Shown piece by piece: positions 13,507 to 28,184 of a stretch of DNA of 64,000 nucleotides. The stretch comes from Acidobacteriota bacterium (GTDB lineage: Bacteria > Acidobacteriota > Thermoanaerobaculia > Multivoradales > JAGPDF01). The DNA is taken from contig JAAYLR010000030.1 in the NCBI GenBank assembly GCA_012521815.1, positions 5,434 to 69,433 on the forward strand, written 5' to 3'. Position 1 is the stretch's first letter, and every line of letters begins with the position of its first letter. The position numbers were made by a program, and so were the translations under genes. The notes beneath the pieces are model-generated. The model had not been told where the DNA came from. It searched no databases and was given only the letters and a program-made list of their open reading frames with translations.

Positions 13507-14625
13507 TCAGAGCTTCGCCGCGATGGCGCGGCCGAGATCGAGGGTGGTGGCGCTGCCGCCCATGTCGTAGGTGCGGACCTGCCCCTCGGCGATCACCGCC
13601 GCGGTCGCCGCCTCGATCCGGCCCGCCATCTCCGTCTCGCCGAGCCAGTCGAGCATCATCTTCGCGGCGAGGATGGTGGCGATCGGGTTGACCTTGTACA
13701 TCCCCGCGTACTTCGGCGCCGAGCCGTGCGAGGGCTCGAAGACGCCGAGCTTCGTGCCGATGTTGCCCGAGCAGCCGAAGCCGAGGCCGCCGACCATCTG
13801 CGCCGCGAGGTCGGAGATGATGTCGCCGTAGAGGTTCGGCGCCACGAGCACCTCGTAGGAGAGCGGGTTCTTCAGCAGCCACATGCAGATCGCGTCGATG
13901 TTCGCGTCGTCGCAGGCGATCTCCGGGTAGTCGGCGGCGACCTTGCGGGCCATCTCGAGGAAGAGCCCGTCGGTGGCGCGCACCACGTTCGCCTTGTGGA
14001 TGATCGTCACCTTCTTGCGGCCGTGCTTGCGGGCGTACTCGAACGCCGCCCGTGCGATCCGCTCCGAGCCGTGGCGGGTGTTGATCTTGCACGAGATCGC
14101 GTACTCGTCGAGGGCGCGGCCGGCGAACGGCTTGAACGCCGGGGCGTTGCGGCCGAGCACCTCGGCCACCTCGGCCGGCACCGGCGAGAACTCGACGCCG
14201 GCGTAGAGGTCCTCGGTGTTCTCGCGGAAGACCACGAGGTCGATCCCCTCGCGCAGGTTGAGCGGGTTGCCCGGATACGCCTTGCAGGGGCGCAGGCAGG
14301 TGTAGAGATCGAACAGCTGCCGCATCCGCACGATCGGCGAGCGGTACTTCAGCCCCTTGCCCTGCAGCTCGGGGACGAGCTCGGCCTCGGCGGTCTTCGC
14401 CGGCTTCGAGGTGATGGCGCCGAACATCGCGGCGTCGACGCGGCCGAGCAGGTCCACGGTGCGCTGCGGGAAGGCGTCTCCCTCCCGGCACCAGAACTCC
14501 CAGCCGATGTCACCATGTTCGTAGTCGGCCCGGAAGCCGACGGCGTCGAGCACGAGGCGGGTCGCTTCGAGGACTTCGATGCCGATTCCATCTCCGGGCA
14601 GCCAGGCGATCTTGTAGCTCTTCAT
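13507..14625 (-). CDS. isocitrate/isopropylmalate dehydrogenase family protein (LeuB-/tartrate-DH-like)
   Basis: 372 aa from the ATG at 14625 (MKSYKIAWLPGDGIGIEV...NLYGDIISDLAAQMVGGLG). This is a beta-decarboxylating dehydrogenase signature. The ORF 13507..14790 is over-extended. Confidence 0.85.
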   Translation of the reverse strand: MKSYKIAWLPGDGIGIEVLEATRLVLDAVGFRADYEHGDIGWEFWCREGDAFPQRTVDLLGRVDAAMFGAITSKPAKTAEAELVPELQGKGLKYRSPIVRMRQLFDLYTCLRPCKAYPGNPLNLREGIDLVVFRENTEDLYAGVEFSPVPAEVAEVLGRNAPAFKPFAGRALDEYAISCKINTRHGSERIARAAFEYARKHGRKKVTIIHKANVVRATDGLFLEMARKVAADYPEIACDDANIDAICMWLLKNPLSYEVLVAPNLYGDIISDLAAQMVGGLGFGCSGNIGTKLGVFEPSHGSAPKYAGMYKVNPIATILAAKMMLDWLGETEMAGRIEAATAAVIAEGQVRTYDMGGSATTLDLGRAIAAKL

Positions 14626-14788
14626 GGATTCGCTCCGCAGGGGTTGGTGGCCCGTCCGGCCACCGGGGTCGGGCCGCTTCGGCGGCCGGAAACAGGCTAT
14701 CCGCCGGACGTTGCGCCGTCGCCACCCCGCCGGGCGGGAGGCATACAATGCCCTCGACTCTGAACCGCGACCGCGGAGGCGGAACACC

Positions 14789-17700
14789 ATGCGAGCGAAC
14801 TGTCAGAGCAGTGCCGGGAGAACCCTGTCCGGCCTCGGGGGGATCCTCCTCCTCTCCCTCCTTCCGGGCCTCGCCACCGGCGCCGGAGCGGCCCCTCCCG
14901 AGGTGCTCCCCGGCCGGGTCCCGGCGGCGGGGGAGCAGGCGGTGACGGTGCGGGTCGCCGCGCTCGGACGCTACGCGCTCGCCGTCGAGAGCCTCCAGGG
15001 GGTGGCGCTCACCCACGTCGACCGGCTCGCGGGGGAGGTCGCAACCGCCGGCGAGGCCGGGGAGGCCGACGGCCGCCTCGATCTCTTCCTGGAGCCGGGG
15101 GAGATCCGGGTGCGTACCCGGGGGCCCGAGCTCGGCCGCGGGGAGGCCCGGCTCACGCTCACCCCGTTCCGCGAGCTCCACGGCAACGCCCTGCCGCACC
15201 TGACGGCCACCGCGCAACTCTCCACCGAGCTCGGCGACCACGAGCAGCGCTCCTGGTGGGTGGAGGCCGTCGCGGGCGAGCCGCTCCTCGCCGAGGCCGC
15301 CGGCCGCCATCTCGCCGACCTCCGCCTCTGGCAGGGGGGCGACTGGCTCCTGCCCGCCCTCCCGGTCTGCGAGCCGATCGAGCCGGTGGCGGGACGGCCG
15401 CTCACCCGCTGCCGCCTGCAGGCCGAGCTGCCGCCGGGGCGCTACCGGCTGAGCGCCTACGGCGGCCCGGGCCTCGCCTGGGCGCGGGCGGGCGGCGAGC
15501 GCCCGCTCCACCTCCGGCTCGGCACCTCGCGCCGGGCCGAAGCGGGGCGCGAGCGGCTCACGATCGGCCCGTTCGGCAGCGAGCGCTTCGTGCTGCCGGG
15601 GAGCACCACCTTCGCCCGGATCGAGCTCCCCGCGCCGGGGCGCGCCACCCTCCGGTTCGGCGACTACGAGCCCGACGCGCCGTTCGCGGCGCCGTGGCGG
15701 ACGGCCGAGATCGACGAGGAGACGCTCGCGCCGGTCGTCGAGCTGCGGCGCCGGGAGACCGACGGCGAAGCCCTTCTCGAGATCGAAGGGATTCCCGGGC
15801 AGGAGCTCGTCTGCGAGCACCTCCGCGTCGCCCGCAAGGCGCCGGTCACCGGCGCCGGGCCGCACTGGGTCGGAAGCGTCCACGCGGGCACCGCGGCCGA
15901 CGCGATCGACGCCACCGGCCTCCTCGTCCTGGAGGTCCCCGACGGCGCCCCCCGCCTCCTCGCCGCCCGGACGGTCGAGCTCGGCGGCGACGGCGTCTGG
16001 CACCGCCGCTTCCAGCTCGACGACACGGCGACGCTCTTCCTCCACGTCGCGGAGCCGGGCAGCTGGGAGCTGACCACCGCCGGCGTCGCCGTCGAGGCCC
16101 GGATCGAGCCGTTCCTCCTCTCGCCCCCCGCCAACTACCGGCCACCGGCGCTCCGCGAGACCCCGCTCTCGTGGGAGCTCGACCGCGGCTACTGGGTCCT
16201 CACGCTGCGCCCCGTGCGGCGCGGCATCGTGACGGCGGCGCTCCATCCGGCGGGCACCCCGGTGCCGGCGGCGTTCACCGCTCCCCTGCCGGCGGTGCGG
16301 CTCGGTGCGGTCGACCTCGACCCCGAATCGGCCTACACCCTCTGGCTCAACGAGCAGCCGGACGTCGCCGTCGGACCGGTCGCCCGGCCGCTGCCGCTCG
16401 ACCTCGCCGCGCCGCTGCCGCTCGCCCTGCGCCCCGGCGAGGAGATCGAGCTCCCGGTGCTCGTCCCGGCGCCCGGCCACCTGCGGGCGGTCGTCGAGGA
16501 CGGCTCGGCGTGGGAGCTCTCCCTCGACGGCGCCCCCTGGACGCTCGAACCCGGGGTGAGCCCGGGCACGGGAGCGCTGCGAGTCCGCTCGACCTCCGCG
16601 GCGAGCCTCTCGGCCTCGCTCGCTCTCGTCCCGGACGCGGTGGCCGGCGCACCGGCCACCGCACTGGCCGCGCCGCCGCCGCTCCTCGCCGAGAGCCTCT
16701 CCCTCACCCTCGCCCGCCACGAAGGGCGGAGCTTCCGCCTGCCCGTCACCCGCGCCGGGCTCTACACGTTCGAGTCGACCGGGCTGCTCGCCACCGCGGG
16801 GAGCCTGCGGGGGCGGGTGCTCGCGCCGTTCGCCTTCGGGATGGAGAACGGCACCGGCCGGAACTTCCGCCTCGCCGCCTGGCTCCCCGAGGGGGAGTAC
16901 CAGCTCCAGGTCGAGAGCCTCGGCGAGAGCGCCGGGCCGGCCGGGCTGCGCTGGCGCCGCGGCGAGCTGCGCGACGGCGGCGAGCTGCTGCCTGCGGTGA
17001 GCGCCCGCGCCGAGCTCGGCGCCGGGGAGGGGATCGTCTGGCGGTTCGACGTTCCGGAGCCGGGGCGGTACGAGGTCGAGGCCCGGCGCGCCGGCCGGCC
17101 GGCGCCGTTCCGGCTGGAGGATCCGGAAGGGTTCCCCGTCGGGGAGGCGCTCGCCGAGGGGATGGCGGAGGTCCGGCTCACCCCGGGCTCCCACCGCCTC
17201 CTCGTGCTCGGCGATGACGCCGCCGGGCCGCTCGTCGTCCGGCTCGAGCGTCACGACGAGCCGGCGGCCGCCACCGGCCACGGACCGCACCCGCTGCCGC
17301 TCGGCGTGACGCGCGAGCACCTCTGGCGCGAGCCGGAAGGAGAGGCGAGCGAAGCCTCCGAGCGGCCGCCCGACCGGTGGCGCTTCACCCTCCCCGCCCC
17401 CGCCGAGGTCATCCTCACCCTCGACCCCGAGATGACCGGCACCCTCCTGCGGCCGGGCGCCGCGGCGGACGAACCGCTCCCGGCCGCGCGGCCGCTCTCC
17501 CTCCGGCTCGCCGCCGGCGAGCACGAGCTCCGCCTCCGTGCCGGCACCCCCGACGATCTGCGCCCCTACGAGCTCAGGATCGACCCGGTGCCGCTCCTCG
17601 CCGGCCTCGAGCGGGAGCTGACGGCTCCCGGCGAGGTCGAGGTCGCGGTCGGTGCGGCCGGCAGCTATCTCCTCGAATCGCGCGGCGAGGCCGACCTCCG

Positions 17701-20014
17701 GGCCCGGCTCCTCGACGCCGGCGGACGGGTGGTCGCCGCGGGGGACGACCGCCCCGGCGACTGGAACTTCCAGCTCGCGCTGCCGCTCGTGGCCGGCCGG
17801 TACCGGCTGCAGGTCGATCCGGTCGGCGGCGAGCCGGCCCGGAGCCGGGTGGCGATGCGTGCTCTCCCCGAGCGCGAGGAGGGCAGCTGGAATGCCGCCG
17901 GCGAACGACGGGTCACCCTCGGCGAAGAGGCGCTCGTCCTCCCCCTCGCGCTCCCGGCGCGGGCGGAGCTGCTCGCCGTGGCCGCCCGCTCGGAGAGCGC
18001 CGTCGGCCTGCGCCTCGACCGGCGCGACGGCGACGGCTGGCGGGAGGTGGCGGCCGCCGACGGCCCCGGGGCGCTCCTCGCCGTGCCGCTCGGCGAGAAA
18101 GCGCCGCTCCGGCTCCGCCTGCTCGGGCTCGACCGCCGGCCGGCGGCGGTGACCCTCCACGGCTTCGCCGGACCGCTCCGCGAGCTCCGGGAGCGTGATC
18201 TCGCGCGTGGGGTGACGCTGCCGGTACTCGCCGGCTTCTCCCCGCCGCTCGCCGCCGCCACGCTCCGGCTCGAGCGCCCGGGCGCCCTGCGCCTCTCGGG
18301 GCAACCGGCAGCGCTGCTCGCGAGCGGCGAGCCGCTCGCCTCGCTCACCTTCGCCGGCGACCTCCTCGTCGCGACCGGAAACCGCCTCTGGGTCGCCGCG
18401 GCGGGCGGCGGGGCGCCCCGGCTCACCGCCACCCGCGCGACGGCGGGAAGTGAGGGTCTCACCCTGTCCCTCACCCCGGACGGCCGCGCGGCCTGCGATC
18501 TCGCGAACCCCGAAGCGCTGCGCTGGGTGGAGGCGACCGCCCCCGCCGGGACCCTCCTCGTGAACACGGCTCTGGCGGACGGCAGCCGCCGCTGGGATCG
18601 CGCGAGCGCCCCCGGCCGCGCGGGCGCCGCGACGGTCGCCCAGCCCGGCGACCGGACGGCGTTCGTGCGGAGCGAAGGGTCGCTCTCCCCCTCGGTACAG
18701 CTGAAGTCGACACCGCTCGCGCTCGCCCCCGCCGTCGAGCTCGCTGCCGGAGAGAGCCGTCTTCTCGAGCTTCCCGCCGGCGGCGGCCGGGAGCTCCGGC
18801 TCCCGGCCGGGCGGTGGCGCCTCGCGCTCGCCCTCGAACGCGGCGCCGCGCTCGCGCTCGGCGACGCGGCCACCCCGGAGGCGCTCGTCCGCGCCGAGGA
18901 AGAGCACCACGCCGAAAGCCTCCTGACGTCGGCCCGGCGGGCGCTCGCGCTCAACCCGACCGGCGCGGCGCGCCAGCTCCGGATCGCCCTCGAACCCCTC
19001 CTCCCCGGCGAGGAGACCGCCGCCCGCCTCGGGCCCGACGGGCGGCTGGAGCTCCTCGCCCCCGGCGCCGGCACCCTCCGCCTCGACCTCCCCCCGGCGA
19101 GCTGCCCGGTCACCCGGCTGCGCGTCGCCGGCGCCACGGCGCTCCTCGTCGCCGCCGACGGCAGCCTCCAGCACGGCCCCGAGCTGCGCTGGCCCGCGGT
19201 GGGCGGCACGCTCCGGCTCCGGCACGACGCCGGCCCGGTGGCCCTCTGGCCCGCCGCCGGCGACCCCGCCGCGCTCGGCTTCTCCCCGGCGCCTGCCGCC
19301 ACCCCGCTCGCCTCCCGGACGCGTCTCGCGGGGGGTGCCGAACAGCGGCTCACGCTGCCCACCGGAGCCCCCGCGCTCCTCGCGCTCCACGGCCCGGCAC
19401 CGCTCTTCGCCGCCCTCGTGACCGCCGACGGCATGGTGGGCTGGGCCGGCCTCCTCGCGCCGGGCACGGCCGCCGTCCTGCCGGTGCCGGACGGCGGCGG
19501 CGAGCTCCGCCTCCGGGGGCTCGCCGGCGCGCCGCTGCCGGCGGGGGTCGAGATCGCCCTCGCCCCGGTGACGCCGCTCGGCGACGGCCTCGGCGAGGAG
19601 CGGCTCCTCGCCCCCGGCGAGGCGCACGGCTACACCTTCACCCTGGAGACGGCCCGCCGCGTCGGGCTCGGGGTGCGGAGCGACAGCGGCCGGGTGGAGG
19701 GCACGCTCTTCGCCGCCGACGGCCGCACGCTCGCCGCGGGCGGCCTCCTCTGGGAGGAGCTGCCGGCCGGCCGCTACCTCTTCGCGCTCCAGCTCTCCCC
19801 GGCCGCCCCCGCCGCCCTCGCCGCGCCGGTGGCCGTGGGGCTCACCCCCGCCGGGCTCGCCCCGCCGCCGGCCGCCGAGCTTGCCCGGCTGCGCGAGCTC
19901 GCCGCCGCGCCCGACCCGCCGCCCCCCGGGGCGATCGCCGGCGAGATCGCCTGGCCCCTGACCGGCATCCCGAGCGAGTCCGACGAACCGACCTCCGAGG
20001 AGAGCGACCGATGA
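14789..20014 (+). CDS. giant secreted repeat protein (1741 aa) of unknown function, first gene of the A2M-PBP1C operon
   Basis: GGAGG SD plus the ATG at 14789. Signal peptide MRANCQSSAGRTLSGLGGILLLSLLPGLATGAGA. There are at least eight [PA]GxYx[LV]-type ~100-aa modules (PGRYRLSA, PGSWELTT, AGLYTFES, EGEYQLQV, PGRYEVEA, AGSYLLES, AGRYRLQV, AGRYLFAL). No thioester or catalytic motif. The stop overlaps the next start (ATGA at 20011-20014). Confidence 0.7.
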   Translation: MRANCQSSAGRTLSGLGGILLLSLLPGLATGAGAAPPEVLPGRVPAAGEQAVTVRVAALGRYALAVESLQGVALTHVDRLAGEVATAGEAGEADGRLDLFLEPGEIRVRTRGPELGRGEARLTLTPFRELHGNALPHLTATAQLSTELGDHEQRSWWVEAVAGEPLLAEAAGRHLADLRLWQGGDWLLPALPVCEPIEPVAGRPLTRCRLQAELPPGRYRLSAYGGPGLAWARAGGERPLHLRLGTSRRAEAGRERLTIGPFGSERFVLPGSTTFARIELPAPGRATLRFGDYEPDAPFAAPWRTAEIDEETLAPVVELRRRETDGEALLEIEGIPGQELVCEHLRVARKAPVTGAGPHWVGSVHAGTAADAIDATGLLVLEVPDGAPRLLAARTVELGGDGVWHRRFQLDDTATLFLHVAEPGSWELTTAGVAVEARIEPFLLSPPANYRPPALRETPLSWELDRGYWVLTLRPVRRGIVTAALHPAGTPVPAAFTAPLPAVRLGAVDLDPESAYTLWLNEQPDVAVGPVARPLPLDLAAPLPLALRPGEEIELPVLVPAPGHLRAVVEDGSAWELSLDGAPWTLEPGVSPGTGALRVRSTSAASLSASLALVPDAVAGAPATALAAPPPLLAESLSLTLARHEGRSFRLPVTRAGLYTFESTGLLATAGSLRGRVLAPFAFGMENGTGRNFRLAAWLPEGEYQLQVESLGESAGPAGLRWRRGELRDGGELLPAVSARAELGAGEGIVWRFDVPEPGRYEVEARRAGRPAPFRLEDPEGFPVGEALAEGMAEVRLTPGSHRLLVLGDDAAGPLVVRLERHDEPAAATGHGPHPLPLGVTREHLWREPEGEASEASERPPDRWRFTLPAPAEVILTLDPEMTGTLLRPGAAADEPLPAARPLSLRLAAGEHELRLRAGTPDDLRPYELRIDPVPLLAGLERELTAPGEVEVAVGAAGSYLLESRGEADLRARLLDAGGRVVAAGDDRPGDWNFQLALPLVAGRYRLQVDPVGGEPARSRVAMRALPEREEGSWNAAGERRVTLGEEALVLPLALPARAELLAVAARSESAVGLRLDRRDGDGWREVAAADGPGALLAVPLGEKAPLRLRLLGLDRRPAAVTLHGFAGPLRELRERDLARGVTLPVLAGFSPPLAAATLRLERPGALRLSGQPAALLASGEPLASLTFAGDLLVATGNRLWVAAAGGGAPRLTATRATAGSEGLTLSLTPDGRAACDLANPEALRWVEATAPAGTLLVNTALADGSRRWDRASAPGRAGAATVAQPGDRTAFVRSEGSLSPSVQLKSTPLALAPAVELAAGESRLLELPAGGGRELRLPAGRWRLALALERGAALALGDAATPEALVRAEEEHHAESLLTSARRALALNPTGAARQLRIALEPLLPGEETAARLGPDGRLELLAPGAGTLRLDLPPASCPVTRLRVAGATALLVAADGSLQHGPELRWPAVGGTLRLRHDAGPVALWPAAGDPAALGFSPAPAATPLASRTRLAGGAEQRLTLPTGAPALLALHGPAPLFAALVTADGMVGWAGLLAPGTAAVLPVPDGGGELRLRGLAGAPLPAGVEIALAPVTPLGDGLGEERLLAPGEAHGYTFTLETARRVGLGVRSDSGRVEGTLFAADGRTLAAGGLLWEELPAGRYLFALQLSPAAPAALAAPVAVGLTPAGLAPPPAAELARLRELAAAPDPPPPGAIAGEIAWPLTGIPSESDEPTSEESDR

Positions 20015-23000
20015 TCCCTGCCGCCACCCGCCGCGCCCTCCCCCTGCTGCTGCTCCTCCTCGCACCGGCCGCGCTCGGGGCCGTGGCGGCGCGCGCCGCC
20101 GACCAGCCGCCGCCGCCCGCGCGTCCGGCCGCCGCCCGCGACGGGGTGACGCTCGTCCCCGACCGCTTCCTCCGCCGCTGGGATCCGGTGACCCTCTTCT
20201 TCCCCACCGTGCAGGGGCCCGAGCGGGGGGGGCCGGAGGCGCACCCGGAGCGCTTCGTCACGATCACCCCCGAACAGCCCGGCGCCTTCACCTGGCTCGA
20301 CGGGCGGACGCTCCAGTTCCAGCCGGCCACCCCCTGGCCGGCGCTCGCCGAGGTGACGGTGCGGGCGGGCGAGCGGCGCTTCCCGCTCGCCGTCCTCCTC
20401 TCCGCGCCGGTGGCGAGCCACCCGGCCGACGGCGCCGAGGGGCTCGCGCGGCTCGACGAGATCACGCTCACCTTCTCCGATCCGGTCGACCCCGCGGCGC
20501 TCGCCCGGGCGGTCACGGTCGAGATCGCCCCGCTGCCCGGCGCCGGGAGCGAGGGCGCCCGGCGCCTCGCCCCCGGGGAGGTCACGGTCAAGCCGCTCCC
20601 GCCCGACCCGGAGGGGAACCACCGGTATGCGCTCCGCCTCCCCGGCCCGGTGCCGGGCGGACACCGCCTCCACCTGCGGCTGGGGCTCTCCCCCGCGGCC
20701 GGCGAGCCCGGCCTCGCCGCCGAGCTCGGCTTCGCCACCGCCATCCCGTTCCGCGCCCTCGCCTTCGGCTGCCGGAGCCGCCAGCTCCCGGTGCTGCCCG
20801 CGGGCGCCCTCTACCCGGCCGCGCAGGCGCTCGCCTGCGAGGGGGACGACCCGGCGGTGGTCGTCGACTTCTCGGCGCTGCCCCGGACGCTCGGGATCGT
20901 CGAGGCGAAGAACCTCGTCCGCCTCTCCCCGCCGGTCGCCGACCTGACCGCCACCCTCTCCGGCCGCCGCCTCGAGCTGCGCGGCGCCTTCACGCGGGAG
21001 AGCGCCTACCGGGTCCGGCTCGTCCCGTCGCCGCTCTCCGACGAGGAGGGCCGGCCGCTCGACCTCGGCGGGGCCAACGAGCTGACCCTCGCCTTCTCCC
21101 GCCCGAGCCCGTACCTGCGGCTGGCCGCCAGCACCGGGATCGCCGAACGGCGCGGGCCGCAGATGATCCCGCTCACCGGGCGCGGGGAAGAGCGGATCGA
21201 CCTCCGGATCCACCGGATCGACCCGCTCGACCGCGCCTTCTGGCCGTTCCCCACGACCCCGGTCGCGGTGGACGAGGGGCAGCGCCCCCCCGGCCCCGGC
21301 GAGCGCCCGGAGCCGTGGACGCAGCCGCAGAGCGGGCCGGAGGCCGCGGAGATCGCGGCCCGGATCGTCGCGCTCGGCTCCCCGGCGCTCTCCGCCCTCG
21401 TCGACCTGCCGCTCCGGCGCGACGGCGGCTCGGCGAGCTTCGGGCTCGACCTGCAGCCGCACCTCGCCCGGATCGCCGGCGAAGGGGCCCCGGGGACCTA
21501 TCTCGTGGGCCTCCGGCGCCTCGGCGGCGGCGCGGAGCGGCACTACCTCCGGCTCCAGGTCTCCGACCTCGCGCTCACGACGCTCGAAGAGGCGCGGCGG
21601 ACCGTCTTCCTCGTCACCTCGCTCGCCGACGCCCGCCCGGTCGCCGGCGCCGAGGTGCGGGTGGAGGGGGTGCGCTGGGCGGGCGGCCGTCCGAGCTGGA
21701 TCGACCTCTTCCGCGGCCGCACCGACGGCACCGGCCGCGTCGCCTGGGACGCCCCCGGCTCTCCCGGCCGGGCGCATCAGCAGGTGGCGCGGATCGTGGT
21801 GGCGGCGGGCGACGACCGGCTGGTGCTCGACCCGCAGCACCCCGCCGAGGCGTACCGCGACGGACGGTGGCAGGCCGACGACGGCGGCTGGCTCCAGTGG
21901 ACGCAGGAGCCCCTCGAGTGGCGCGGCGAGGAGGTCGAGCGGCTCGCCCACCTCTTCACCGAGCGGCCGGTCTACCGCCCCGAGGACCCGGTGCACCTGA
22001 AGGCGTACCTGCGCACCCGCACCGGCGGCCGGCTCGCGCCGCTCGCTACCGAGGGGGTCTTCGTGATCGACGGCCCCGGCGACCTCGTCTGGCGCTACCC
22101 GGTCGAGCCGGCGGAGAACGGCTCCGTCTACCTGCGCTTCGAGGAGCCCGACCTGCCCACCGGCACCTACCGGGCCCGGTTCGAGGCCCTCGACGACCAG
22201 GGACCGGTGCGGGGCACGGTCTCCTTCCGCAAGGAGGCGTACCGCCTCCCCCGTTTCGAGGTGCGGCTCGACGGGCCGGAACGGGTGCCGCTCGACCGCC
22301 CGTTCGATCTCCGGCTGACCGCCACCTACTACGCCGGCGGCCGCGTCGCCGCCCGCCCCGTCGAGTGGCGCGTCACGCAGTTCCCGTACGCCTGGAGCCC
22401 GCCCGGGCGCCCCGGCTTCCACTTCTCCTCCGACGCCCGCTTCTCCGGCGAGAGCCGCTTCGAGGCGACCCCGGCGTTCGCCCGCGCCGACCTGACCGAC
22501 GAGGACGGCGGCGCCCGGCTCCGGCTCGACCCGGCGCTCGAGCCGACCGCCCAGCCGCGCACCTACGTGGTCGAGGCCACGGTGGTCGACGTCGACGAGC
22601 AGACGGTGAGCGCCACCCGGCAGGTGGTCGCGCTCCCGCCCCTCCTGCTTGGCCTGCGCGTGCCCCGGTATCTGGAGGAGGCCGGCGCGCTGCGCCCCGA
22701 GGTGCTCGTGCTCGGCCCCGACGCCGAGCCGCTCGCCGGCCAGCCGGTCACGGTACGGCTCCGCCAGCGCCGCTGGCACTCCCACCTGCGCGCCTCGGAC
22801 TTCACCGACGGCGTGGCCCGCTACGTCACCGAGATGGTCGAGGAGAACCTCGCCGAGCAGCGGGTGACGAGCGGGACCGAGCCGGTCACCGCCGGCTTCA
22901 CCCTCCCCGAGGCCGGGGTCTACGTCGTCGAGCTCGAGGCGCGCGACCGCCTCGGCCGCACCCAGCGGGTGGCGGTCGACCTCTTCGCGGGCGGCGGCGA

Positions 23001-25824
23001 GCCGGTCGCCTGGCCGCGGCCGGCGACGCCGGTCTTCCACGTCACCCCCGACCGCACCCGCTACCGCCCCGGCGACACCGCCCGGCTCGTCCTCCAGAGC
23101 CCGTTCCAGAGCGGCGAGGCGCTGGCGATCGTCGAGGCGCCCGACGGCGTCCGGTACGAATGGCTCCCGGTGCGCAACGGCCAGGCCGTCCTCTCGCTGC
23201 CCGTCGCGGGGAGCTGGACCCCGAAGATCCCGGTCCACTTCCTCCTCCTGCGGGGCCGCCTCGCGGGGACCCGGCCGCTCCCCGGCAACGCCACCGACCC
23301 CGGCCGCCCCGCCACCTTCGGGGCGACCGTCTGGCTGGAGGTCGAGCCGCGCGCCCACCGCCTCGACGTCGCGCTCGCGCACCCGACACGCGCCCGGCCC
23401 GGGGAGGAGATCGAGATCGAGGTCCGCCTCGCCGATCCCGACGGTCACCCGGCCGCCGGCGAGGTCACCCTCTGGCTCGTCGATCAGGCGGTTCTCGCGC
23501 TCGGGCGCGAGCAGCGGCTCGATCCGGTGCCGAGCTTCCTCGGCCAGCCGCGCTCCCGGTGGAGCGCCCGCGACACCCGCGCGCTCGTCTTCGGCTTCCT
23601 CCCGTTCACCGGCCAGCCCGGCGGCGACGAGGGGGAGGAGGCGGGCTCGCTGCTCGACCGGCAGACGGTGCGACGCAACTTCCAGCCGGTGCCGTTCTAC
23701 GAGCCGGCGCTCGCGGTCGGCCCCTCCGGTGTCGCCCGCGTGCGTCTGACGCTCCCCGACGACCTGACGAACTTCATGGTGCGCGCCAAGGCGGTCTCCG
23801 GCGCCGCGCGGTTCGGCTGGGCCACCGGCCGGATCGAGGTCCGCCTGCCGGTCCTCGTCCAGCCGGCGCTGCCGCGCTTCGTGCGCCCCGGCGACCGTTT
23901 CGTCGCCGGCGCGGTCGGCCGGGTGCTCGACGGCACCAGCGGGGCCGGCACCGCCGAGGCCAGGGTGGCGGGCGTCACCCTCGACGGCCCCGCGAAGCAG
24001 GCGCTCGCCTGGGAGAGCGATCGCCCCGCGCTTGCGAGCTTCCCGCTGAGCGTCCCGCCGGACGCGACCGGCGAGGCGCGGATCCGGATCGGCGCCGAGC
24101 GACGCGCCGACGGCGCCGGCGACGCCTTCGAGCTCACGCTGCCGATCCGCCCCGACCGGGAGCGCGAGCTCACCCGGGAGCTCACCCGGCTCGCCCCCGG
24201 CGGTGCGCTCCGCCTGCCGGCGCCCGCCGGCGCGGTGCGCCCGGGGAGCCTGCAGCGGCGCCTCCTGCTCACGACCGAGGCGCGGGTGGCGGCGCTCGCC
24301 ACCGGCCTCGACTTCCTCCTCGACTACCCGCACGGCTGCACCGAGCAGCGCCTCGCCGCCGCCCGCGCCCAGCTCGCGCTCGCGCGCTTCCGCGAGCTGC
24401 TCGGACGCGAGGAGGGCGCGGCGCGGCTCGCTCGCGCGGTGCGCGACACCCTCGACTGGCTGCCGCTCGTCCAGCAGCCGAGCGGGCTGTTCGCCGGCTG
24501 GCCCGGCGGCACCGGCTCGGTGACCCTCACTGCCTGGACGGTCGAGTTCCTCGCCGAGGCGGCCGAGGCCGGGCACGCGGTCGAACCCGGGGTGCGCGAC
24601 GCCGCCCTCCGGGCGCTCGCCCAGGCGCTCCGCTCCGACTACTCGGAGCTGCTCGCCGGCGAGGAGTGGGCCGAGCGGACGGCGGCACTCCGCGCCCTCG
24701 CCCGCGCCGGACGGTTCGATCCGGCGTACGGCAACGAGCTCGCCCGCCGCGCCCAGTTCCTCGACCTCGAGGGGCGCGCCAACGTCCTCGCCGCCTTCGA
24801 GCGCGGCGGCGCGGCGACGGCTCCGGCCGTGAGCCCGCTCGCCGACTCGCTCTGGGAGGGGATCGGCGTCCGGCTCCATCAGGGAGAGGAGCTCTTCGGC
24901 GGCCTCACCGGCGACGAGCGGACGCGCGATCCCCGGCTCCTCCCCTCCGAGACACGGACGATGGCGCAGATGCTCCGCGCCCTCCGCCCGCTGCCGCGGG
25001 AGGGGGAGCGGGAGCGGCGCTTCACGCTGCTCGCCGACGCCCTCGTGGCGCGCGGGCGCGGCGACGGCTGGGGGAGCACGAACGCGAACGCGGCGGCGAT
25101 CCTCGCCCTCTCCGAGCTGCTCGCCGAAGGCGGCGACGGCCCCGCGGTGCGCGCCGAGCTGCGGCATGCCGGGCGCCACGAGCCGCTCACCGTGGACGGC
25201 CGCGCGCCCGCCGTGCACTGGCGTTCGGCGGCGGCGGGCGAGGTCATGGTCGAGCTTCCGGCGACGGCCGCGGCCCCGCTCTCCGCGGTGAGCGAGGCCT
25301 CCTGGATCCCGGCCGCCTCCGGCGCGGAGGCCGCGGCCCGGCAGGCGGGGTTCGTCCTCCGCCGCACGCTCGAGATCGAGCGGCACGGAGCCCCTGCCGA
25401 GGCGCCGCCGGAGCGGGTGACGATCGACCGTCCGGGAAGCGAGGTCGCGCTCGTGCAGGGCGAGATCGTCGAGGAGCGGATCCAGATCGTGAACCCGGAG
25501 GACCGGCACTTCGTCGCGGTCGTCGTGCCGCTCGCCGCCGGCTTCGAGCCGCTCAACCCGGCGCTCGAGACCGCGCCGCCGGAGGCCCGCCCGCGCGGCC
25601 GCGACACCCTCGAGCCGACCTACGCCTTCTTCCTCGACGACCAGGCGGCGTTCTACTTCGATGCGCTGCCGAAGGGGACGTACGACCTCTTCTTCCGCGT
25701 CCGCGCCCAGATCCCCGGCCGCTTCGTGCAGCCGCCGGCGAAGGTCGAGATGATGTACGACGCGAGCGTCGCGGGCACGAGCGCCGGCGCGACGATCGAG
25801 ATCGCGCCCCGGCCCGAGCGGTGA
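20011..25824 (+). CDS. yfhM: bacterial alpha-2-macroglobulin family protein (thioester-containing, YfhM/ECAM-like)
   Basis: 1937 aa with signal peptide. Thioester motif YPHGCTEQ at about 24337-24348. Multi-domain MG-like N-terminus. Followed by a pbpC homolog with a GTGA start/stop overlap. Confidence 0.85.
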   Translation: MIPAATRRALPLLLLLLAPAALGAVAARAADQPPPPARPAAARDGVTLVPDRFLRRWDPVTLFFPTVQGPERGGPEAHPERFVTITPEQPGAFTWLDGRTLQFQPATPWPALAEVTVRAGERRFPLAVLLSAPVASHPADGAEGLARLDEITLTFSDPVDPAALARAVTVEIAPLPGAGSEGARRLAPGEVTVKPLPPDPEGNHRYALRLPGPVPGGHRLHLRLGLSPAAGEPGLAAELGFATAIPFRALAFGCRSRQLPVLPAGALYPAAQALACEGDDPAVVVDFSALPRTLGIVEAKNLVRLSPPVADLTATLSGRRLELRGAFTRESAYRVRLVPSPLSDEEGRPLDLGGANELTLAFSRPSPYLRLAASTGIAERRGPQMIPLTGRGEERIDLRIHRIDPLDRAFWPFPTTPVAVDEGQRPPGPGERPEPWTQPQSGPEAAEIAARIVALGSPALSALVDLPLRRDGGSASFGLDLQPHLARIAGEGAPGTYLVGLRRLGGGAERHYLRLQVSDLALTTLEEARRTVFLVTSLADARPVAGAEVRVEGVRWAGGRPSWIDLFRGRTDGTGRVAWDAPGSPGRAHQQVARIVVAAGDDRLVLDPQHPAEAYRDGRWQADDGGWLQWTQEPLEWRGEEVERLAHLFTERPVYRPEDPVHLKAYLRTRTGGRLAPLATEGVFVIDGPGDLVWRYPVEPAENGSVYLRFEEPDLPTGTYRARFEALDDQGPVRGTVSFRKEAYRLPRFEVRLDGPERVPLDRPFDLRLTATYYAGGRVAARPVEWRVTQFPYAWSPPGRPGFHFSSDARFSGESRFEATPAFARADLTDEDGGARLRLDPALEPTAQPRTYVVEATVVDVDEQTVSATRQVVALPPLLLGLRVPRYLEEAGALRPEVLVLGPDAEPLAGQPVTVRLRQRRWHSHLRASDFTDGVARYVTEMVEENLAEQRVTSGTEPVTAGFTLPEAGVYVVELEARDRLGRTQRVAVDLFAGGGEPVAWPRPATPVFHVTPDRTRYRPGDTARLVLQSPFQSGEALAIVEAPDGVRYEWLPVRNGQAVLSLPVAGSWTPKIPVHFLLLRGRLAGTRPLPGNATDPGRPATFGATVWLEVEPRAHRLDVALAHPTRARPGEEIEIEVRLADPDGHPAAGEVTLWLVDQAVLALGREQRLDPVPSFLGQPRSRWSARDTRALVFGFLPFTGQPGGDEGEEAGSLLDRQTVRRNFQPVPFYEPALAVGPSGVARVRLTLPDDLTNFMVRAKAVSGAARFGWATGRIEVRLPVLVQPALPRFVRPGDRFVAGAVGRVLDGTSGAGTAEARVAGVTLDGPAKQALAWESDRPALASFPLSVPPDATGEARIRIGAERRADGAGDAFELTLPIRPDRERELTRELTRLAPGGALRLPAPAGAVRPGSLQRRLLLTTEARVAALATGLDFLLDYPHGCTEQRLAAARAQLALARFRELLGREEGAARLARAVRDTLDWLPLVQQPSGLFAGWPGGTGSVTLTAWTVEFLAEAAEAGHAVEPGVRDAALRALAQALRSDYSELLAGEEWAERTAALRALARAGRFDPAYGNELARRAQFLDLEGRANVLAAFERGGAATAPAVSPLADSLWEGIGVRLHQGEELFGGLTGDERTRDPRLLPSETRTMAQMLRALRPLPREGERERRFTLLADALVARGRGDGWGSTNANAAAILALSELLAEGGDGPAVRAELRHAGRHEPLTVDGRAPAVHWRSAAAGEVMVELPATAAAPLSAVSEASWIPAASGAEAAARQAGFVLRRTLEIERHGAPAEAPPERVTIDRPGSEVALVQGEIVEERIQIVNPEDRHFVAVVVPLAAGFEPLNPALETAPPEARPRGRDTLEPTYAFFLDDQAAFYFDALPKGTYDLFFRVRAQIPGRFVQPPAKVEMMYDASVAGTSAGATIEIAPRPER

Positions 25825-28184
25825 GCCGCCGGCGCCGGCGCGCGCTCGCGCTCGCGATCCTCGCCGCGCCCCTGCTCGGGGTGGGGGGGCTCGCGCTCGC
25901 GCGCTCGGGCCTGGAGGCGCCGGCGCCGACGCTCCTGGTGCGCGACCGCGCCGGGCAGTTTCTCGGCGAGCTCCCCGCGCCGGGCGACGAGCGGCTCGGC
26001 TACTGGCCGCTCCCCGAGCTGCCGGCGCGGGTGGCGGCGGCGACGCTCGCGCTCGAAGACCGCCGCTTCGCTCGCCATCCCGGCGTCGATCCGCTCGCGA
26101 TCGCCCGCGCCTTCGTCCAGAACCGGGCGGCCGGGCGACGGCTCTCGGGCGCCTCGACGATCGCGATGCAGGTCGCCCGCCTGCAGCACCCCGGGCCGCG
26201 CGGCTACCTCCGCAAGGGGGTCGAGGCGGCGACCGCGCTCGCCCTCACCGCCCGGCACGGACGCGAGGCGCTCCTCGCCCACTATCTGCGGATCGTCCCC
26301 TACGGCCACCGGATCCACGGGATCGCCTACGCCGCCCGGCGGTACCTCGACAAGCCGGTGGCGGATCTCTCCTGGGCCGAGATCGCCTTCCTCGCCGCGA
26401 TCCCGCAGGCGCCCGCCCGCCACGACCCGTTCACCGCCGCCGGCCGCGCCCGGGCGGTGCGGCGGGGGGAGCGGATCCTCGACCGCCTCGCCGCCGACGG
26501 CCTCCTCGACGCCCACGACCTCGCGGTGGCGCGCGCCGAGATCGCCCATCTCCGCCTCCCCTGGCAGGCGGCGCGGCCCCGCGCCGCGCTCCACCCGCTC
26601 CTCGCCCTCGAATCGCGCCTCCCGCCGGACGCCCGGGCGACCGCGCCGCTGCTCACCACCACGCTCGCCCTCGAGCTGCAGGAGGAGGTCGAGGAGCTCG
26701 CCGCCCGCGCGGTGCACGCCGCCGCCGACCGGGGGGCGGGCAACGCCGCGGTCCTCGTGGTCGCACGCGGCAGCTGGGAGGTGCTCGCCGCGGTCGGCTC
26801 GACCGGCTACTACGACGCCGGCCGCGCCGGGGCGATCGACTACCTGCGGGTGCCCCGCTCCTCCGGCTCGACGCTCAAGCCGTTCGTCTACGCCCTCGCG
26901 CTCGAGCGGGGCGAGATCTCGCCGGCCACCATCCTCGACGACCTCGGCCCCGGCCCGGGCGGGATCGTCAACGCCGACGGGCGGTTCCTCGGCCCGCTCC
27001 TGCCGCGCACCGCGCTCGCCAACTCGCGCAACGTCCCCGCGGTGGACCTCCTCGCCCGGCTCGGCCTCGACCGCGTCTACGGCCTCTGCGGCGACCTCGG
27101 CCTCCACGACGGCCGCCTCCCGGCGCGCCGCTACGGGCTCGGGCTCGCGATCGGCTCCCTGCCGGTGAGCCTCGAACGGCTCGTCGGCGCCTACACCGCG
27201 CTCGCCGGAGACGGCCGCCGCCACGAGCTCGTCTGGCTCCGCCCCCGCCCCGGCCAGCCGCCGCCGGGGGCGCCGGTCCGCCTCTTCTCCGAGGAGACGG
27301 CCCGCCTCCTGACCCTCTTCCTCGCCGATCCGCAGGCCCGCCTGCCAACCTTCCCGCGGATGGGCGCGACCGAGTACCCGTTCCCGGTGGCGGTGAAGAC
27401 CGGCACCTCCTCCCGCTACCGCGACGCCTGGACGATCGCCTGGTCGGACCGCTACCTCGTCGGCGCCTGGGTCGGCGACCCCGACGAGCGGCCGATGAGC
27501 CACCTCTCCGGCTACCGGGTCGCCGCCGGGCTCGTGCAGGAGGTGCTCCTCCACCTCCACGGCGCGCGGAGCGACGGGATCGGCCAGCCCGACTTCCCGG
27601 CGCCGCGCGGCTGGCGGCGGGAGCGCCTCTGTCCGCTCTCGGGCGGCCGCGCCACCGCCGCCTGCGGCACCGCACAGCTCGAATGGCTGCCCGCCGACGC
27701 CCCCTCTCCCCCCGAGTGCACCGCGCACCGTCTCGTCGCCCTCGATCGCCGCACCGGCCGGCCGGCCCGGCCGGGCAGCCCCGACGCGACGGTCGAGTGG
27801 CGCTCGGAGCTCCGCCTTCCCCCGCGCTACGCCGGCTGGCTCGCCGCCCGGGCGCGGCCCGCTGCCGAGGAGGATGCTCCCGGAACGGCTTTCCTGCCGC
27901 AGCTCGCCGGCGTCGAGGCGCGCATCGAGGTGCTCTCCCCGGAGCCGGGCAGCCGCCTGCTCCGCGACCCGGAGACGCCGGAGGCGCTGCGCACCGTCGC
28001 GCTGCGCGCCGTCGTCGATCCCCCTTCCCCGCAGCTCGTCTGGTACCTCGACGGCCGCCCGCTCGCCACCGTGGAGAGCCCGTACGAGCTCCGCTGGCGG
28101 CTCGAGCCCGGCGAGCACGTCTTCCAGGCGCGCCTCCCCTTCGGCGGCGCCCGCTCCCGGCTGGTGCGGGTGACGGTGGAGTGA
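25821..28184 (+). CDS. pbpC: penicillin-binding protein 1C (transglycosylase/transpeptidase)
   Basis: 787 aa. The GT51 transglycosylase N-terminus has EDRRFARHPGVD and RLSGASTIAMQVARL. The transpeptidase domain has the SxxK motif GSTLKP. GTG start overlaps the A2M stop. Confidence 0.85.
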   Translation: MSRRRRRALALAILAAPLLGVGGLALARSGLEAPAPTLLVRDRAGQFLGELPAPGDERLGYWPLPELPARVAAATLALEDRRFARHPGVDPLAIARAFVQNRAAGRRLSGASTIAMQVARLQHPGPRGYLRKGVEAATALALTARHGREALLAHYLRIVPYGHRIHGIAYAARRYLDKPVADLSWAEIAFLAAIPQAPARHDPFTAAGRARAVRRGERILDRLAADGLLDAHDLAVARAEIAHLRLPWQAARPRAALHPLLALESRLPPDARATAPLLTTTLALELQEEVEELAARAVHAAADRGAGNAAVLVVARGSWEVLAAVGSTGYYDAGRAGAIDYLRVPRSSGSTLKPFVYALALERGEISPATILDDLGPGPGGIVNADGRFLGPLLPRTALANSRNVPAVDLLARLGLDRVYGLCGDLGLHDGRLPARRYGLGLAIGSLPVSLERLVGAYTALAGDGRRHELVWLRPRPGQPPPGAPVRLFSEETARLLTLFLADPQARLPTFPRMGATEYPFPVAVKTGTSSRYRDAWTIAWSDRYLVGAWVGDPDERPMSHLSGYRVAAGLVQEVLLHLHGARSDGIGQPDFPAPRGWRRERLCPLSGGRATAACGTAQLEWLPADAPSPPECTAHRLVALDRRTGRPARPGSPDATVEWRSELRLPPRYAGWLAARARPAAEEDAPGTAFLPQLAGVEARIEVLSPEPGSRLLRDPETPEALRTVALRAVVDPPSPQLVWYLDGRPLATVESPYELRWRLEPGEHVFQARLPFGGARSRLVRVTVE

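Follow-up and report, generated by a model that had tools for sequence, protein, structure and literature searches.

Does a Type I (thioester) bacterial alpha-2-macroglobulin (A2M) work with a penicillin-binding protein alone, or can it have a dedicated third partner? Type I modules are described as A2M plus PBP1c only, and their A2Ms are regarded as membrane-anchored monomers, 'snap traps' whose only companion is PBP1C (PMC4498604, PMC5764988). E. coli YfhM (ECAM)-PbpC is presented as a two-gene Type I module following Budd et al. 2004, as cited in the same two papers. The window analysed here, a 64,000-nucleotide stretch of DNA from an Acidobacteriota bacterium, carries a very large uncharacterised gene (the giant) directly upstream of an A2M-PBP1C pair, and the original prediction was that its product is a third obligatory partner absent from the described module. 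The published descriptions bear out that absence, and a literature search of incomplete coverage found no account of a third partner of a Type I A2M.

The three genes lie in a row on the + strand: the giant (14789-20014), the thioester A2M (20011-25824) and the PBP1C (25821-28184). As predicted, the stop codon of the giant overlaps the A2M start as ATGA (20011-20014), a translational-coupling signature with GAGGAG ~8 nt upstream, and the A2M stop overlaps the GTG start of pbpC as GTGA (25821-25824). A Shine-Dalgarno sequence, GGAGG (14775-14779), precedes the giant ATG at 14789. The upstream intergenic region (14627-14788, + strand) is the presumed operon promoter region; a consensus scan found no sigma-70-like site there, such a scan being uninformative at 77% GC, and the promoter is therefore only presumed. 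Beyond it is a divergent, minus-strand isocitrate/isopropylmalate dehydrogenase gene (ORF 13507-14790, with the Pfam Iso_dh match starting from residue 60). Inside the operon no terminator-like site was found on the + strand, in a scan that is equally uninformative at this GC content. Given the overlaps and this result, it is a reasonable inference that the three proteins are produced stoichiometrically from a single transcript. At the other end of the locus, a CN_hydrolase gene lies 23 nt 3' of pbpC in the window and is not conserved elsewhere.

The second and third genes resemble the E. coli module. The A2M (1937 aa) has Pfam matches above cut-off to MG2 (4.5e-13), A2M_BRD (2e-17), A2M (4.7e-13) and bMG10 (1e-26). 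Its bait-region domain (PF07703) spans residues 1010-1164 (23038-23502, + strand), and the thioester motif GCTEQ, within YPHGCTEQ, is at residues 1442-1446 (24334-24348, + strand), aligned with GCLEQ of YfhM. The two proteins are collinear, thioester on thioester, with 24% identity over 946 aa (E 2e-22); the N-terminus of the window A2M extends ~260 aa beyond that of YfhM, and the A2Ms of its clade are ~260-300 aa longer. An N-terminal A2M block, VVPDRFLRRWDPVT, is strongly conserved. A phmmer search with the window A2M against PDB chains detected no match. The 787-aa product of the third gene has an N-terminal membrane anchor followed by glycosyltransferase, transpeptidase and BiPBP_C regions, with Pfam matches above cut-off (Transgly 1.3e-42, Transpeptidase 9e-12, BiPBP_C 6e-11). 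Its best NCBIfam match is TIGR02073 PBP_1c (2.7e-128), at 429.6 bits and so below the 494.2-bit cut-off, and we call it PBP1C-type. In both systems PBP1C follows a thioester A2M with bait region and MG domains on the same strand, and in E. coli K-12 pbpC comes directly after yfhM with no gap. Upstream of yfhM, however, there is no giant but the divergent sseA.

A second difference concerns membrane attachment. ECAM is anchored in the inner membrane (PMC4498604), whereas the window A2M has a Sec signal without a lipobox Cys and hence no inner-membrane lipoprotein anchor of the ECAM/Sa-A2M type. Its clade, of ~1900-2000 aa proteins, is at least 50% identical across the best 120 homologues; a lipobox regular expression matched only 6 of 120 clade members, and in most of these the Cys falls inside the hydrophobic stretch and not at its end. 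The missing anchor marks a separate subclade and does not exclude these proteins from the A2M superfamily.

The giant is a 1741-aa exported protein, and the same reading is given in the NCBI annotation of an identical protein (P0001, from a Thermoanaerobaculia MAG). In agreement with the original prediction, it begins with a Sec-type signal peptide region (residues 1-35; 14789-14893, + strand; no lipobox) and its translation contains no CxEQ motif. More than 200 full-length homologues were found, and Sec-type signal peptides are present in the full-length giants among the first 60 listed, none of which was flagged by the lipobox pattern. A single-sequence search of protein representatives with residues 36-1200 gave a uniform family of 591 representatives of clusters at 50% identity (E<=1e-30), nearly all of 1700-1900 aa. 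Invariant family motifs include GRHLADLRLW (172-181), NGxGRNF (687-693), GHGPH (830-834) and DDRPxDWNF (986-994). About three-quarters of the 60 listed homologue C-termini carry a D/E-rich tail; the others end soon after a conserved PDTGPP..RYL or are truncated.

We then asked how often the giant accompanies the A2M. Genomes, one per species, were scanned with giant-specific peptide patterns, and short contigs without an A2M in reach were not scored. Of the 67 loci that could be tested, drawn from at least eight phyla, 66 have a co-oriented A2M gene immediately 3' of the giant; they span Acidobacteriota, Nitrospirota, Elusimicrobiota, Myxococcota, Desulfobacterota, Binatia and the Alpha-, Beta- and Gammaproteobacteria; the sole exception has a transposase gene. 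The 4-nt overlap of giant and A2M recurs in 39/70 loci (ATGA in 32, GTGA in 7). These counts put the arrangement well outside what chance would give. In the reverse direction, all four A2M homologues picked regardless of the giant have a giant-sized upstream gene (1852-2278 aa, no Pfam match) with a 4-nt overlap, these genes being judged by size and position and not by homology. Homologues of the giant are thus not found mostly away from A2M loci, the first of two results that the original prediction named as refuting it; the second, a diverged A2M paralogue, does not apply either (see below). The link to PBP1C is looser, with a PBP1C gene 3' of the A2M in 42/53 loci and an A2M/PbpC overlap in 11/48. 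The tight three-gene module first proposed is therefore better described as a near-universal core pair, giant plus A2M, with a more dispensable PBP1C. There is no conserved fourth gene; the best-represented cluster of flanking genes is shared by only 7 of ~80 loci, all close relatives, so the module is self-contained.

The three genes are co-inherited. Pairwise-identity matrices of giant and A2M correlate strongly (r=0.93, 40 loci, uncorrected for the species tree). Adjacency and coupling show shared function, not a complex. The claim of an obligatory third partner holds for one A2M clade (~1900-2000 aa, no lipobox) and not as a general feature of A2M-PBP1C modules, since E. coli yfhM-pbpC has no giant. 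Of 60 partner A2Ms, 53 retain CxEQ, and the giant is still present at the 7 loci where the motif has been lost; the role of the giant is thus not strictly dependent on thioester chemistry.

What kind of protein is the giant? By sequence it has no match in Pfam, NCBIfam, PADLOC or the PDB, and a search of PDB chains with the family profile returned nothing useful. Across 28 homologues Pfam gave only sporadic weak beta-sandwich matches, among them weak PPC matches in 5/28 (best E 5.8e-4; the giant of locus L084 reached 23.8 bits against a cut-off of 25.9); the PPC profile (PF04151) did not match the window giant at E<=0.1. AlphaFold models of high confidence predict ~17 beta-sandwich domains in a compact arrangement (pTM 0.73-0.74), which fits a defined body and not beads on a string. 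Domains D1-D11 (residues 36-1130; 14894-18178, + strand) are better conserved and contain the invariant motifs, with PPC-like domains repeated internally at about residues 633-727, 727-823, 840-935 and 938-1028. Domains D12-D17 (residues 1150-1685; 18236-19843, + strand) are less conserved except for the last, PPC-like D17 (1586-1685). A short predicted helix (~residues 1690-1706) and a disordered, acidic, D/E/S-rich C-terminal tail follow (19856-20011, + strand; pLDDT <50 over model residues 1070-1102). Conserved surfaces are seen, for example, on D1-D3 or D7-D10.

Strong structural matches are to single PPC/collagen-binding domains only. The giant domains can thus be named at the level of the predicted fold, as PPC/collagen-binding-like jelly-roll beta-sandwiches, and the earlier statement that no domain could be named stands for sequence families alone. 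The collagen-binding domains of ColG, ColH and B. anthracis collagenase (1nqd, 3jqw, 5iku, 5sv5) share this fold with the giant at 5-14% sequence identity; known proteins such as these carry one to three PPC domains attached to a catalytic domain, whereas the giant has ~17 beta-sandwiches and no catalytic domain. Its description as a repeat protein is likewise right at one level. Internal segments match each other in hhalign with a probability of up to 96%, but at the DNA level there are no meaningful tandem repeats, only three trivial short arrays.

Since the giant is upstream of the A2M in almost every related genome examined, a distinct and widespread clade of the A2M-PBP1C module for envelope defence has a third dedicated component. 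Our preferred reading, to which we would give slightly better than even chances, is that the giant is a dedicated and obligate accessory subunit, located in the periplasm, for one distinct clade of thioester A2Ms that are soluble and not lipoproteins. The three genes would form one operon in which giant and A2M are translated in coupled fashion, and both proteins would be exported by Sec to the periplasm. There, the compact 185-kDa giant, with its ~17 PPC/CUB-like beta-sandwiches, would bind the 205-kDa A2M to make the working protease trap, stabilising, positioning or gating it much as MagB acts on the Type II MagD. The giant might in addition form the second trap wall missing in monomeric ECAM. 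PBP1C, where present, would provide peptidoglycan repair. The scaffold, bait-presenting or sensor function first suggested would each be a candidate role. Counting against an obligate subunit, giants are on average only 37.6% identical to one another, against 51.6% for the A2Ms (pairwise, 40 loci), and such faster divergence is unusual for a rigid obligate interface.

The best precedent for an A2M as a multi-protein complex is magABCDEF of P. aeruginosa (PMC5764988, PMC3735191), in which an A2M and its dedicated accessory proteins (MagA, MagB, MagF) are likewise encoded in one operon. These proteins bind MagD 1:1, and MagB is needed for MagD stability and localisation (PMC5764988). Unlike the window A2M, MagD has no thioester and no pbpC linkage, and the window encodes a single, very large accessory protein where Type II operons encode several. 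The Type II accessory proteins (MagA/B/C/E/F; E. coli YfaA/P/Q/T) are of small to medium size and belong to Pfam DUF families, none of which matches the window giant.

If the complex is real, the working model of protease trapping by bacterial A2Ms changes, and a very large orphan family, ~600 cluster representatives (clusters at 50% identity) with no Pfam or NCBIfam model, gains a function. Being soluble and exported, the two proteins would also make a tractable system in which to study how partner subunits came to join thioester proteins.

A more ambitious version, which we regard as a speculative outside chance, is that giant and A2M form a heterodimeric or hetero-oligomeric cage closed or gated by the giant, or that the giant is the recognition/sensor subunit of a 'complement-like' pair. 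As a monomer, bacterial A2M is inhibitory only when the substrate is large (PMC12939704), which leaves room for a cage-completing partner. The tetrameric metazoan A2M cage (PMC9181621, PMC12939704) is similar as a functional analogy only, in that effective trapping needs more than one large subunit to close a cage and the giant would be a second large all-beta subunit produced along with the A2M; the metazoan cage is an A2M homo-oligomer, whereas the giant is unrelated to A2M in sequence and fold architecture and its complex is hypothetical. Were the cage correct, a bacterial thioester protein would gain full encapsulation, as metazoan A2M does by homo-tetramerisation. The sensor alternative would imply a primitive two-component system of a thioester protein and a CUB-like recognition protein in free-living bacteria.

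The PPC-like fold also allows a structural role, in which the giant is an envelope tether whose domains bind an insoluble polymer (peptidoglycan, exopolysaccharide or an outer-membrane component) and hold the unanchored A2M at the site of protease entry, replacing the ECAM-type lipid anchor. We consider this unlikely. The giant has no anchor and no LysM, SPOR, OmpA-like or other recognisable peptidoglycan- or membrane-binding domain; its predicted shape is compact (pTM 0.74) and not extended; and fold likeness alone does not indicate a ligand.

Mutual binding would not be needed at all if the giant were a further inhibitor, or a decoy, acting on a target of its own, such as a PliG-like array of lysozyme/hydrolase inhibitors. 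One operon would in that case unite defence against proteases and muramidases with peptidoglycan repair. PliG does appear among the structural matches, but below the PPC matches, as a generic jelly-roll at 9-16% identity, and there is no sequence match to an inhibitor family. This reading also leaves the tighter coupling of giant to A2M than of A2M to PbpC unexplained, and we think it improbable.

The faster divergence of the giant relative to its neighbours could be taken to mean that it is an exported protein of unrelated function which only happens to share the A2M transcript. The conservation data make this very doubtful: adjacency, order and strand are kept across many phyla while all other neighbours vary, the reverse test was positive in every case, the 4-nt overlap is frequent and the single exception has a transposase gene. 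Least probable, and largely refuted, is a highly diverged, thioester-less A2M/MG-domain paralogue. In its favour, the giant is all-beta and A2M-like in size, and the leading Foldseek matches of its model, over ~1100-1300 aligned columns, include ECAM (4ziq, E 4e-9; 5a42, probability 0.96) as well as Salmonella A2M and complement C5. Yet hhalign of giant against A2M gives a probability of only 0.3%, and the giant has no MG-domain homology, keyring architecture, helical thioester domain or bait region. The giant is not an A2M homologue.

Two further ideas were examined and rejected. The window giant contains only 0.2% Lys, as if it avoided Lys to escape the thioester of its partner. Lys content follows genomic GC across 57 loci, however, and the giant mean (2.1%) lies between those of PbpC (1.65%) and A2M (2.8%); there is therefore no specific depletion. 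A domain common to giant and PBP1C was suggested by one homologue that matched BiPBP_C, but hhalign of the giant family against the C-terminus of the window PbpC gave 0.6%. PADLOC anti-phage defence models matched none of the three proteins.

Returning to the preferred accessory-subunit reading, the distribution of the clade adds context. A2M characterisation has so far dealt mainly with host-associated enterobacteria, and the literature emphasises host-associated species, whereas this clade occurs mainly in MAGs labelled as soil or groundwater; the phyla that carry it are best known as free-living. This weakens the view that bacterial A2Ms serve chiefly in the colonisation of animals or plants. 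The clade is large and phylogenetically broad; its thioester A2Ms have lost the lipid anchor and are instead paired, near-invariably, with a giant uncharacterised protein. Endothiovibrio diazotrophicus is among the bacteria that carry the module.

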